Below are positions 55,827 through 63,892 of a stretch of DNA of 64,000 bases, one piece after another. The position numbers were made by a program, and so were the translations under genes. How positions within the stretch are numbered: position 1 is the first letter of the stretch; every line of letters starts with the position of its first letter. The notes under the pieces are model-generated. The model was not told the origin of the DNA, made no database searches, and saw only the letters and a program-made list of their open reading frames with translations. Origin of the DNA: a phage; sequence record PZ445530.1. One strand, written 5' to 3'.

Positions 55827-56525
55827 TTACAATCTTTCAGCAAGAGCCTTTGCGTAACACGCTTCAGCAGACTCTTTGGTGTCAAACCTGCCTAGCGTTT
55901 TTCCTCTGAAAGTTACTTTCCATTTGCCCCTATCTGCTTCAAATCTGACACCTCTAGATTTATCCCTCCCTAAAGGCTGTCCACGATATTCCCTGACAAA
56001 CGTGCCACTTTCAAAAGACTTTTGAGCAGCAAGGGCCTCTTCTAAGGTATCGTATTCTCCTAGGTCTTTCTTATAGTAATGACCTACCTTACCAAAAGCA
56101 GCATACCTTCCAGTTCTAGCATGAAAATATACACCCAAGTGTCCAGTGTTAGATTTAGGTATCTTGCGTGCCAGGCATCCGTCATCTGCCGCCTTTTTTG
56201 CGTTTTCTTCTGGTGTTAACAGTTGTAGGTTTTCTATCCTGTCATCAGCAACACCATCGGAATAGAAAAGTGGCTTTATGTGATCAACTTCGTACCCTTC
56301 TGGAATTGGTCCATAATGCATCTCCCACACCAATCTATGCCTGTAGTAATGCACGCCGCGATAGATTATATCCCTGTACCCGTCCATGTTAGTACATCCA
56401 GCCTCCTTTCCCATCAGTTGAGGTTTGTTTTTTGGTGGGGACTTCCAAAACAACCTTCCAGTGCCTGTATCGTATCTAAAGACACTCCACCAGTCAATCC
56501 CGTTACTCATCTGTAACAACTCCAC
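55827..56525 (-). CDS. HNH homing endonuclease
   Basis: HRLVWEMHYGPIPEGYEVDHIKPL...NLQLLTPEENAKK HNH signature. Confidence 0.7.
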   Translation of the reverse strand: MELLQMSNGIDWWSVFRYDTGTGRLFWKSPPKNKPQLMGKEAGCTNMDGYRDIIYRGVHYYRHRLVWEMHYGPIPEGYEVDHIKPLFYSDGVADDRIENLQLLTPEENAKKAADDGCLARKIPKSNTGHLGVYFHARTGRYAAFGKVGHYYKKDLGEYDTLEEALAAQKSFESGTFVREYRGQPLGRDKSRGVRFEADRGKWKVTFRGKTLGRFDTKESAEACYAKALAERL

Positions 56526-56991
56526 CTGCCTTCTTAAAGATCTCCAGCATCTTGTCTATACTTTCTGCTCGCTGATTGTACAGCTTTCCAGCCCCTGGCG
56601 GTGGTGGGAAGCTTGCCCAGCGGCTGCGGCATTTATAAATGGCCTGATGAATACGCCCTTCATCAATGTCGGCGAGAGCCTTGCACTCACGGATCAGTTG
56701 CAACGCAATCTTGTCCTGACTGTCAGGGCCAAAATCTGGTAATCCTAACTGTTTCATGTAGTGTTTAGCAAACTTCTCCAAAACCTGGTAACGCCCAGCA
56801 GCGGAGGAGGTAAGTTTAGCATTTAGCTTAACGTAAACACCGGGATGCTTGCTGTAATCGCTGAACAGCTTGCCTCCGACTATGACATCGTACCCCCGAT
56901 CCTTGGTAGGTTGTCTACCATTATCTGTGCCTTCCGAATATGCGATCATATCCAAGAAAGCTTTTCGTTGAACATTTTTATCAAGTTTCAT
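56503..56991 (-). CDS. endolysin, lambda R-like lytic transglycosylase
   Basis: near-colinear with lambda R: QRKAFLDMIAYSEGTDNGRQ...GYDVIVGG...FSDYSKHPGV...AAGRYQ. Confidence 0.8.
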   Translation of the reverse strand: MKLDKNVQRKAFLDMIAYSEGTDNGRQPTKDRGYDVIVGGKLFSDYSKHPGVYVKLNAKLTSSAAGRYQVLEKFAKHYMKQLGLPDFGPDSQDKIALQLIRECKALADIDEGRIHQAIYKCRSRWASFPPPPGAGKLYNQRAESIDKMLEIFKKAGGVVTDE

Positions 56992-58963: not shown

Positions 58964-59025
58964 AACTGACTACCTCACTGCATACTTTCCATAATAAGTA
59001 AAGCCGGGTAATCCCGGCTATGTTG

Positions 59026-59739
59026 TTAAATATACTCTGTTACATCCTTGAAGCTCGAAGGCTTCATAATCTTACCTTTACTGTCAAGGAATATAATAAC
59101 TTTATTGCCGTTGTAGAACTCCTCTTTAGCAACGAAACCTTCGTAGCGACCACCAAAACGACGCTCAAGATCTTTAATCTCCAACTCGATGAGTTGTTCA
59201 GCAGGCATATCTGCACTGGCACCGTGTGAATGCCGTAGATGGTTGATCCGTGCAAACTTACTGTCATTAGATTTTAGAACCTTCCGCATCATCCCACACA
59301 CATCCCCGCTAAGCTGGAACAGCAAAGCTGTTGATAACTCCGCTAGTCGGTAAGCTGACGCTCTTTGCTTGGATGTGTTTTTCGCAGCGATCAGTGTATC
59401 ATAGAACTCACCGATCTTGAACTTAAGACCTCGCGGATTATCAAACAGGTTTGACCACTTTTCGTGGTTATCATTAACAAGATAAGCTGCATAACTTGTG
59501 ACAACGTGAAGATCGCAGGCCTCTTTTAGCAGGTGATCTCCACCATCACCTTTCTCCAGCTCTTCCAAAACCTCATTGAACTCTTCCTCAATGAAGCTAA
59601 GCTGTAATTCGAATGGTGTGTATGATTTTTTCACTTTAGCTGCCACACGGTTCCAGTTTTCCACCCAGTTGGCAGACCAAAGGTAGTTTTCAGGCTGGGA
59701 CAGTTTTTCCAGGTTGTCGATCAGTTTAGTATTCAGCAT
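59026..59739 (-). CDS. hypothetical protein (weak MazG-like EExxE...E..D pattern)
   Basis: IEEEFNEVLEELEKGDGGDHLL. Confidence 0.35.
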   Translation of the reverse strand: MLNTKLIDNLEKLSQPENYLWSANWVENWNRVAAKVKKSYTPFELQLSFIEEEFNEVLEELEKGDGGDHLLKEACDLHVVTSYAAYLVNDNHEKWSNLFDNPRGLKFKIGEFYDTLIAAKNTSKQRASAYRLAELSTALLFQLSGDVCGMMRKVLKSNDSKFARINHLRHSHGASADMPAEQLIELEIKDLERRFGGRYEGFVAKEEFYNGNKVIIFLDSKGKIMKPSSFKDVTEYI

Positions 59740-59752
59740 TAAAGGTCTCCTT

Positions 59753-60286
59753 TTAAAGTTCCATAAAGTTTTCTACAGTTTCAATAAATGCTTTATCAGA
59801 GAAAGCGTCAACAGCACCGTTAAACCATACAGGGATCCCGCGATCCTCATATTGATAAAGGTCGCTACGTGAAATGCCACTTCCATCTGCACTCTGCGAA
59901 TCATACTTGTTTACAATCAGCAGTTTTGTGCCTTTACAAGTAGCAGGAAACAATTCCCAGTTAAAATTAATAACTGTGTTAGAACAACCTACCAGGATCA
60001 CCATATCATTGCTTGTGAGAGATGTCAACAGGTCATACATGTCTGTATACTTAGGAGCAACCTCACCGAAGAACACTACATTGGGCTTAACCCAGGTATA
60101 CTTGCCTGTATCTACCTCCGTGTATCCGATATTTTTAATTACATCATTACCTTCAGCATCTTCGTAGGTGATTTCAGGCAAATACCCGTGGACATGTAAA
60201 ATATCTTCATGTTTTACACCAGCACGCTCCAGCAAATCATCTACATTGGTAGTAAGGTTGATCACACGACCAGACCAGCGGGTCAT
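59753..60286 (-). CDS. Sir2-like (sirtuin-fold) protein, apparently lacking the N-terminal NAD-binding GAGIS region and the Zn-binding cysteines
   Basis: NVDDLLERAG, ILHVHG, KPNVVFFGE, MVILVGCSNTV match sirtuin motifs QNID.LH.RAG / LHG / RP.VV.FGE / LV(I/V)GTS. Confidence 0.45.
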   Translation of the reverse strand: MTRWSGRVINLTTNVDDLLERAGVKHEDILHVHGYLPEITYEDAEGNDVIKNIGYTEVDTGKYTWVKPNVVFFGEVAPKYTDMYDLLTSLTSNDMVILVGCSNTVINFNWELFPATCKGTKLLIVNKYDSQSADGSGISRSDLYQYEDRGIPVWFNGAVDAFSDKAFIETVENFMEL

Positions 60287-60791
60287 GGAGTTTGATTCAT
60301 GTCAAAAACACAGATCTCAGTATGATCACAATCTTGACAGTATGAATGCGGGAATCATCGCCGAGTGGAACTCTGTTGTGTCACCTGCAGACACTGTGTT
60401 CCACTTGGGAGATATTGCGTGCACTAATGATAAGAATATCAACAACTTACTTCCAGATATTCTAAATATGTTGAACGGACATATTATTCTTGTTCGTGGC
60501 AACCATGACACAAGGACGACTGTCAGAATTATGAAAGAGTTCGGTCATGAGGTTGTAGATTATTACGAGCTTCGCCACAACAAGAATTTAATCTGTATGA
60601 GCCATTACCAGTTTGCAAAGTGGAACAGAAAGCCTCACGGATCAGTCCAACTGTTCGGTCATGCTCACGGAACCACACAACAGTTGTTTGGCAGGCAGCT
60701 TGATGTCGGTTGGGATGTGTGGGGGAGACTCTTACCATTAGAAGAGGCATACCGTATTGCAATGAGTTTTGATATTGACAGCAGGGAGTAA
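60285..60791 (+). CDS. metallophosphoesterase-like protein, N-terminal metal-binding motif I absent or degenerate
   Basis: IAEWNSVVSPADTVFHLGDIA (motif II), LVRGNHD (motif III), GHAHG; start abuts the Sir2-like start codon on the other strand. Confidence 0.45.
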   Translation: MEFDSCQKHRSQYDHNLDSMNAGIIAEWNSVVSPADTVFHLGDIACTNDKNINNLLPDILNMLNGHIILVRGNHDTRTTVRIMKEFGHEVVDYYELRHNKNLICMSHYQFAKWNRKPHGSVQLFGHAHGTTQQLFGRQLDVGWDVWGRLLPLEEAYRIAMSFDIDSRE

Positions 60792-60838
60792 TCCCTGCTA
60801 TTTTAAAGAAAATTGCCACACAAGGAGAATCAGGAGAT

Positions 60839-61189
60839 ATGAAAGATGGGGATAAGCTGCTATATCTTAAAGTCCCCCTTGAAATACTATCTATGTCAAA
60901 AGTTTTGAATGACACAACTGGGGAGGTTGTTGTTCTTGACTTGTATGACAAGATCGTATACTGCTACCTGCACAACTGGTATAAGCTTGGAGGAAATTCA
61001 CGCTTCACACCAAGCACAAGGAAAATTGCAGCAGATGTTGGGATAAAGAAAACAAAAGCAGCAGCGTGCGTTAAAACTTTAGAATGTGCAGGAGTGGTTG
61101 AAACATCCACACAAGGGAGAGGTAAAAGATGCACATTTTCCAAAGTTTTGCCACCAGAAGAAGTTATTCGGATGTCAACAACTGGTTAG
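60839..61189 (+). CDS. helix-turn-helix DNA-binding protein
   Basis: STRKIAADVGIKKTKAAACVKTLECAGVV HTH-like segment; SD AGGAGA; immediately upstream of palindromic operator array. Confidence 0.5.
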   Translation: MKDGDKLLYLKVPLEILSMSKVLNDTTGEVVVLDLYDKIVYCYLHNWYKLGGNSRFTPSTRKIAADVGIKKTKAAACVKTLECAGVVETSTQGRGKRCTFSKVLPPEEVIRMSTTG

Positions 61190-61264
61190 ACCAGTAAAAA
61201 CTTAAATATCTGTACTATAAGGATTCGTATGTTTTATGTTCGCCATGGAACGGATACTATTAAC

Positions 61265-61345
61265 TGTCCGTGATACGGACACTACTGTCCGTCACGCGGA
61301 CACATCTGCCCGTAATACGGACACTAACTGTCCGTGATACGGACA
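61265..61345. promoter_or_regulatory. array of four 17-bp palindromic sites TGTCCGT-N3-ACGGACA at 21-22 bp spacing
   Basis: copies at ~61265, ~61286, ~61307, ~61329; copies 1 and 4 perfect. Confidence 0.6.
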
Positions 61346-61349
61346 CATA

Positions 61350-61480
61350 AAGAATATAACTAAAATAACTAAATAATAAAAAATAAAAGATCTAGTACTT
61401 ATGGTACTAAGTACATATACTTAACTTATGTAGAATATACTAGATCCTAAGTACCATGTTTTAAATTTATTACTTACTAT
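61350..61480. repeat. AT-rich region with palindromes (GTACTTA...TAAGTAC)
   Basis: lies between operator array and GC-rich element. Confidence 0.4.
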
Positions 61481-61484
61481 GGGC

Positions 61485-61750
61485 AGTGTCGGCCCTTCAT
61501 TGGCACTCGCCTACGAGGGGCGAGATGCCGGGCCTCCTTGGTGCACACAATAACAGAAGTTCATACATGCAGGTCTGTTAACATGTGTGGGAGCGAAGCG
61601 ATAGCGCAGGCCAAAGGCCGAGCACTGATGTGGACCACCGACGAAAGCTTGCCAGCGCCGTAAGGAGTCGGTTGAGAGTCTCCCGCGCGAGCTTGGATGA
61701 AGTTTATGTGTGGAAACTGACAAGAAGGCCCCTAAATCGCTCCACAGCTA
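61485..61750 (+). ncRNA. candidate structured non-coding RNA (GC-rich island, unknown family)
   Basis: marked local GC excess, long imperfect hairpin ~61491-61534, no credible ORF on either strand. Confidence 0.25.
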
Positions 61751-63726: not shown

Positions 63727-63801
63727 GCCCTGTTAGCTTAGTGGATAAAGCAGCGGCCTTCTAAGCCGTTGACACTGGTTCGAGTCCAGTACGGGGTGCC
63801 A
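63727..63801 (+). tRNA. tRNA-Arg (anticodon TCT), CCA encoded
   Basis: cloverleaf folded by hand: 7-bp acceptor, GCTT/AAGC D-stem, anticodon loop CTTCTAA, T-arm ACTGG-TTCGAGT-CCAGT. Confidence 0.75.
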
Positions 63802-63805
63802 AATT

Positions 63806-63892
63806 GGGGAGTTATCCCGTAGAGGTAGCGGTGTAGACTGTAAATCTATTGTCATTACGACTCGGGTGGTTCGACTCCACCACTTCCCACCA
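63806..63892 (+). tRNA. tRNA-Tyr (anticodon GTA), long variable arm, CCA encoded
   Basis: anticodon stem-loop GTAGA-CTGTAAA-TCTAT, T-arm GGTGG-TTCGACT-CCACC; close to E. coli tRNA-Tyr through anticodon and variable arms. Confidence 0.75.

Follow-up and report, generated by a model that had tools for sequence, protein, structure and literature searches.

Very probable spontaneous deletion of a predicted RNA-repair gene cassette in a Vequintavirus phage

Introduction

How can two divergent phage genes begin on the same four bases? In the 64-kb stretch of phage DNA analysed here (the window), a minus-strand open reading frame (ORF) resembling sirtuins (Sir2) and a plus-strand ORF resembling metallophosphatases are read away from each other out of start codons that overlap. 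The initial annotation, made from the sequence alone, considered both genes to be N-terminally truncated and saw in the junction either the breakpoint of a recombination or deletion event or a join made during assembly. The gene content around such sirtuins has been described. Iyer, Burroughs, Anantharaman & Aravind (2022; PMC9503650, section 3.7.3) predicted a sirtuin-centred, NAD+-utilising RNA-repair neighbourhood in Escherichia phage V5 and Proteus phage Mydo, by which RNA ends bearing 2',3'-cyclic phosphates would be cleaned up and re-ligated, and in their model the sirtuin is KptA-like, removing 2'-phosphates using NAD+. Here we compare the locus with those of related phages and ask what the two short ORFs represent.

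Results

Both start codons exist as first read. The ATG at 60286 on the minus strand and that at 60285-60287 on the plus strand, the latter within the mechanical ORF 60168..60791, both belong to one CATG, read on opposite strands, at Met17 inside the phosphoesterase, so that no intergenic space is left between the ORFs. The initial annotation saw no room for ribosome-binding sites (RBSs), and no SD-like sequence was found upstream of either ATG. The minus-strand ORF, 177 aa long and beginning MTRWSGRVINLTTNVDDLLERAG, has a stop codon 5 codons upstream of its ATG, and this ATG is the antisense of phosphoesterase codons.

The two flanks that abut in the window lie 2,087 bp apart in the related phage AlexBoehm (MZ501048.1, L001). 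Left homology to AlexBoehm runs up to window position 60282 (L001 9283) and right homology starts at window position 60274 (L001 11362), so that 9 bases, ACCAGCGGG, are common to both alignments. Compared with all related genomes examined, 2,087 bp are absent at this point. The 9-mer ACCAGCGGG is found once in the whole window, and AlexBoehm, rV5_ev146, Gotham and rV5_ev147 (L001-L004) each have two copies of it, spaced by exactly 2,087 bp; microhomology of at least 9 bp would be expected in a random join with P ~3e-5. The locus thus carries the repeat at both end points in its undeleted form and one copy at the junction, with no inserted DNA, as in a microhomology deletion. The left flank is collinear with rV5_ev147 over 24.3 kb in one piece (98.1%), and the right flank with relatives over 3.7 kb in one HSP. 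Other causes of the shortness of the ORFs were considered. A move of the missing genes to another part of the window was rejected, as a similarity search found the deleted segment nowhere else in the 64 kb. A frameshift and an intron or homing-endonuclease insertion were rejected because the flanks match the intact genes base for base up to the repeat. Taken as a whole, the site is very probably what a real, spontaneous deletion left behind in the genome of a Vequintavirus. One copy of the 9-bp repeat lay in sirtuin codons 78-81, read antisense, and the other in phosphoesterase codons 13-16; recombination between them, via replication slippage or short-homology illegitimate recombination, would have removed 2,087 bp and kept one copy. 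The features of the locus are collected in Table 1.

Table 1. Features at and around the junction in the window
Feature	Coordinates	Strand	Remarks
Terminator-like GC-rich hairpin ending the leftward unit	59002..59019	.	Same site in L001; ARNold-predicted terminator in Gotham
MazG-like gene, intact, 237 aa, last of the leftward Rnl-cREC-Sir2-MazG unit	59026..59739	-	RefSeq relatives: nucleotide pyrophosphohydrolase
Sirtuin (Sir2) pseudogene remnant	59753..60286	-	Native residues 79-253 after fortuitous Met-Thr
Promoter-like site TTGACA-17-TATGGT, extended -10 TG, inside the Sir2 remnant	60000..60028	-	Consensus match; conserved in L001
Deletion junction	60274..60282	.	Single remaining copy of the 9-bp direct repeat ACCAGCGGG
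Calcineurin-like phosphoesterase remnant	60276..60791	+	Native from Gln14; ATG at 60285 is internal Met17
CATG palindrome, source of both overlapping start codons	60284..60287	.	Direct sequence reading
Promoter-like site upstream of the HTH regulator gene	60775..60804	+	PhagePromoter annotates a promoter at the Gotham equivalent
HTH_36/DUF6945 putative transcriptional regulator, first intact rightward gene	60839..61189	+	Pfam

The comparison with intact relatives bears out that both genes are N-terminally truncated. The sirtuin remnant is without its GAGLS NAD-binding N-terminus, promoter and RBS. It matches the Pfam SIR2 profile (PF02146) at positions 79-178 of 180 only (44 bits, GA 24), while the intact orthologue matches positions 1-178 with 98 bits. 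The N-terminal Rossmann NAD-binding motif GAGxS is absent from 59753-60286; in the intact orthologue it is found as GAGLSAESGIPTFRS within the deleted residues 1-78. The QNID-type motif and the catalytic His are kept, in TTNVDDLLERAG and LHVHG. The sirtuin had been described as lacking an N-terminus of about 100 aa including the NAD-binding region; the truncation and the loss of GAGLS are confirmed by Pfam and the orthologue, but the missing part measures 78 residues. No CxxC...CxxC zinc-ribbon cysteines are present in the phage sirtuin, either in AlexBoehm (L001 8754-9515) or in the window, which fits the "distinct clade of sirtuin proteins" of PMC9503650.

The phosphoesterase remnant is likewise without RBS and promoter, and has lost motif I (DxH): the deleted residues 1-13, MKYFVTSDTHFLH, hold D8-x-H10. 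Motifs II (GD), III (GNHD/E) and V (GHxH) are kept as HLGDIA, RGNHD and FGHAHG. The earlier reading had motifs II and III present and motif I missing or scrambled; II and III are indeed there and I is missing, but nothing is scrambled, since FDSCQKH represents native residues 19-25. When PF00149 and PF12850 were tested, the Metallophos_2 match of the window ORF started at profile position 14 rather than 1, and its score was below GA (26.1 vs 27). Exact look-up of the two possible products of the remnant (168 aa and 149 aa) gave no match. Judged from their sequences, both flanking ORFs are non-functional pseudogene remnants, and their annotation should name them as deletion remnants instead of as a sirtuin and a phosphatase that are both short and start on overlapping codons. 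Two further truncated phosphoesterase calls were noted in the protein collection: P0016 (149 aa), for which there is also a third contig (135.6 kb), and P0026, a 168-aa call on another haplotype (contig of 136.3 kb) whose first residues are MEFDSCQ; both may be marks of further deleted genomes. The 90%-identity cluster of the 184-aa phosphoesterase also lists many 136-aa polynucleotide kinase sequences. As kinase and phosphoesterase proteins are unrelated, this membership seems to be a clustering artefact, for which a gene model that fuses or mis-calls kinase and phosphoesterase may be responsible.

In AlexBoehm terms, the deleted segment comprises codons 1-78 of the 253-aa sirtuin, including GAGLSAESGIPTFRS; a 116-aa protein with the Pfam domain cREC_REC (cyclic-phosphate processing receiver domain); a 305-aa RNA ligase of the T4 Rnl1 type (Pfam RNA_lig_T4_1); a 118-bp divergent intergenic region, which is the promoter region; a 136-aa polynucleotide kinase of the Pfam AAA_33/Zeta-toxin-type P-loop kinases; and codons 1-13 of the 184-aa phosphoesterase, whose full protein matches Pfam Metallophos. 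Genes for the two heal-and-seal enzymes, RNA ligase and polynucleotide kinase, are absent throughout the 64-kb window, the rest of the genome lying outside it. The lost intergenic region holds a promoter-like site, TTGAAA-17-TATACT, upstream of the kinase gene, where the annotators of Gotham also predicted a promoter. The intact leftward genes Rnl, cREC, Sir2 and MazG-like are separated by a 4-nt overlap and then by gaps of 8 nt and 13 nt, with a GC-rich hairpin at the end, and owing to this tight packing and terminal hairpin they look like one transcription unit. In an otherwise intact metagenomic relative (L010, SKEA01000454.1), an extra 202-aa ORF at 1845-2453, probably another mobile endonuclease, lies between RNA ligase and cREC, and the cassette evidently tolerates insertions.

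The MazG-like gene is the sole whole gene of this unit in the window, and it is now without the upstream control region. Its 237-aa protein, called MazG-superfamily in PMC9503650, had no match in a Pfam search. The promoter-like site inside the Sir2 remnant is the only remaining candidate driver of this gene. On the other side of the scar, the site upstream of the HTH regulator gene is retained, so that the rightward genes keep a candidate promoter of their own. Sigma-70 consensus matches are no commoner than in shuffled sequence, which makes these statements on residual promoters weak. Directly downstream of the HTH regulator gene, at 61263-61348, are four non-coding tandem 21-bp units with the consensus ACTGTCCGTGATACGGACACT, each with an inverted repeat GTCCGT..ACGGAC. 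Relatives annotate them as 'repeat_region', and in one RefSeq record the adjacent gene is a replication initiation protein; the units could be operator sites or iterons.

Megablast of window positions 59000-61500 against 50,697 phage records matched 122 rV5-like genomes (Vequintavirus, E. coli myophages), and no match among these 122 GenBank genomes spanned the junction. In every record among the matches listed, 59000-60282 matched one place and the remainder a second; 60283-61500 matched end to end in 118 records. The 11 records common to the listings of both flank searches all had the two places 2,087 bp apart, or 2,088 bp in a single case. The deleted segment is present and collinear, with 92-100% identity, in 118 of 120 related GenBank records. 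Intact loci were also found in one IMG/VR sequence and four of five metagenome sequences (L008, L009, L010, L012 and L013), and the remaining one, L011, is a contig of 5.8 kb that stops within the module. Neither the 120 GenBank records nor the 6 metagenome or IMG/VR loci showed a module deletion with other end points. About 18-21 of the records are labelled 'Campylobacter phage' (GenBank MG0656xx, host C. jejuni) and are 94-99.8% identical to the E. coli rV5-like phages here; wrong labels, or coliphages contaminating preparations of Campylobacter phages, are the probable cause.

The same junction was present in two other assemblies. The exact 177-aa Sir2 remnant was found on the Logan contigs ERR14020395_2153 (51 kb, L006) and ERR16009830_1517 (40 kb, L007), where it adjoins a truncated 149-aa phosphoesterase call, and both contigs contain the junction 25-mer. 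Each aligns with the window in one HSP through the junction, L006 with 97.5% identity over 7,386 nt and L007 with 98.1% over 4,341 nt without gaps. L006 and L007 are not the same sequence: SNPs separate them, and L007 has an additional gene, of 257 aa. An exact scan of IMG/VR, GTDB genomes and JGI metagenomes did not find the junction 25-mer, and a 400-bp junction query had no match in complete E. coli genomes. To the left of the junction, the window carries on its minus strand, at 55827-56525, a 232-aa homing endonuclease gene (HNH_3 and AP2-like) that overlaps the end of the endolysin gene (56503-56991). This stretch of about 0.8 kb is missing from AlexBoehm and L006, homology breaking at 56615/55822, and the 257-aa gene of L007 is a different gene at the equivalent position; the site appears to be a variable homing-endonuclease slot.

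The three deleted genomes could go back to one event or to several. The window, L006 and L007 have an AlexBoehm-type haplotype in common in the 2.3 kb to the left of the junction, with at most 3 differences at 265 variable columns, while rV5_ev146, Gotham and rV5_ev147 are different at a large fraction of these columns; the haplotype is found at 99.8% identity or more in only about 6 of the 122 database genomes. No difference separates the window from L006 between 58484 and 60364. From 60365 on, only 83 bp away from the junction, the window's right flank is of the rV5_ev146/Gotham type; in L006 and L007 the AlexBoehm-like sequence continues for a few hundred bases more. For a switch of haplotype so near the junction, there must have been a crossover very close to it, or else the same deletion arose independently. 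The better account is probably that the deletion arose once, on an AlexBoehm-like haplotype, with recombination afterwards, and that it persists in a small circulating, recombining lineage. The converse, that the site is a hot spot at which the same 9-bp pair recombined separately in each of the three genomes, possibly by selection for loss, seems unlikely, because all three share the uncommon left haplotype over 2.3 kb and no deletion with other end points was seen in the GenBank, metagenome or IMG/VR loci. The module contains 25 direct-repeat pairs of at least 9 bp, 12 of them of at least 10 bp; the 24 pairs other than the one used, including those 12, were thus available and count against a hot spot, but the pair used has the highest GC content and the widest spacing and is conserved in all four intact relatives tested, which would favour it, as does the right-flank haplotype of the window, unlike that of L006 and L007.

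An assembly artefact, that is, a false join or collapsed region in the window's assembly, is highly improbable. Although none of the 122 GenBank relatives spans the junction, and neither IMG/VR, GTDB, the JGI metagenomes nor the complete E. coli genomes contain it, the same junction was recovered from two other read sets, separately assembled and with diverged backgrounds, and collinearity with relatives otherwise extends over 24 kb in one flank and 3.7 kb in the other. Assemblers use k-mers far longer than 9 bp, so a repeat of this size cannot collapse their graph. The two ENA runs (ERR14020395 and ERR16009830) might not be independent of the window's source study. With the same scar in three genomes from at least two pipelines, and a repeat shorter than the k-mers, an assembly join is excluded in practice. 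From the pair of explanations offered at the outset, the deletion breakpoint is thus retained, with 2,087 bp lost between 9-bp repeats, and the assembly join is dropped.

An engineered knockout of the RNA-repair locus would explain why exactly the core of a predicted functional module was removed, but it is barely credible, as the end points, which share 9 bp of microhomology, lie inside two genes rather than at clean ORF boundaries, neither a scar nor a marker is present, and at least three diverged genomes have the junction. Naturally short subfamilies with genuine overlapping divergent starts, in keeping with the ATG starts of both remnants and a Sir2 score over the Pfam threshold, are ruled out, since the 100%-identical flanks of AlexBoehm run into full-length genes whose products, of 253 aa and 184 aa, match the Pfam profiles from end to end, GAGLS and metallophosphatase motif I are absent from the remnants, and there is no RBS or promoter, the minus-strand ATG being antisense of phosphoesterase codons.

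Discussion

A spontaneous deletion is thus by far the best account of the overlapping start codons. Spontaneous deletions between short direct repeats occur in lytic phages, classically in T7 and in the rII region of T4. The present case resembles them in its end-point repeats of about 5-10 bp, the one copy kept, the lack of filler DNA and the loss of dispensable genes; the mechanism is alike, but the deletion here is found in at least three diverged genomes and not in a laboratory stock. The mechanism itself is a classical, common phage mutation, and the lost gene set has already been described. As far as the available sequences reach, the allele is new, as is its presence in at least three diverged genomes, and it is the only cassette loss seen among about 125 related genomes and contigs. 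No report of such a deletion was found in the literature on the RNA ligase or polynucleotide kinase of rV5/Vequintavirus.

Intact relatives carry the components of the predicted V5/Mydo neighbourhood, namely a sirtuin, a T4-like RNA ligase, cREC, a nucleotide kinase, a MazG-like protein and a calcineurin-like phosphoesterase. The window differs in that three of these genes are gone, two are truncated and the MazG-like gene alone is whole; the system itself is a computational prediction. The closest characterised parallel is provided by T4, where Pnkp and Rnl1 repair tRNA-Lys cut by the anticodon nuclease PrrC. Laboratory strains tolerate the loss of pnk and rli by T4, the mutants being viable there, but prr+ strains restrict them (PMC3014915). 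T4 and the rV5-like phages share an Rnl1-family ligase, a 5' kinase and a 3'-end healing phosphoesterase. They differ in that the rV5-like kinase and phosphatase are separate genes and the rV5-like set adds the sirtuin, cREC and MazG. The T4 phosphatase is of the DxDxT/HAD type and the rV5-like one is of the calcineurin type, as is that of Clostridium thermocellum Pnkp (PMC2190708).

The function of the deleted module is predicted from its domain content and from the analogy with T4. On this basis we infer that the phage would no longer be able to heal and seal tRNAs cut by nucleases. Hosts free of anticodon or other metal-independent RNA nucleases should support its normal growth, and hosts that have them should restrict it. 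The window also contains tRNA-Arg(TCT) and tRNA-Tyr(GTA) genes at 63727-63892, the start of a phage tRNA cluster inside which the window ends and which in relatives goes on with Lys, Thr, Ile/Met and Pro. With these genes, the phage keeps a tRNA supply of its own despite the loss of tRNA-repair genes.

It is doubtful that the loss of the cassette was adaptive rather than neutral, the module having been a liability on some hosts, either as a trigger of abortive-infection or NAD-linked defence or through its cost. If it were, selection would favour deletion phages and keep the lineage, or the recurrent junction, present in nature, and the three deleted genomes would mark a host defence that senses the phage RNA-repair counter-defence. 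The window and the two other read sets show that rV5-like phages can persist without a sirtuin/cREC/Rnl/PNK/phosphoesterase cassette that is present in essentially every sequenced member of the genus. These natural knockouts, together with the near-isogenic intact phage AlexBoehm (100% over 1.3 kb left of the junction), could be used for tests of the predicted NAD+-dependent RNA-repair counter-defence, and the deletion may bear on host-range prediction for Vequintavirus phages in therapy or biocontrol.
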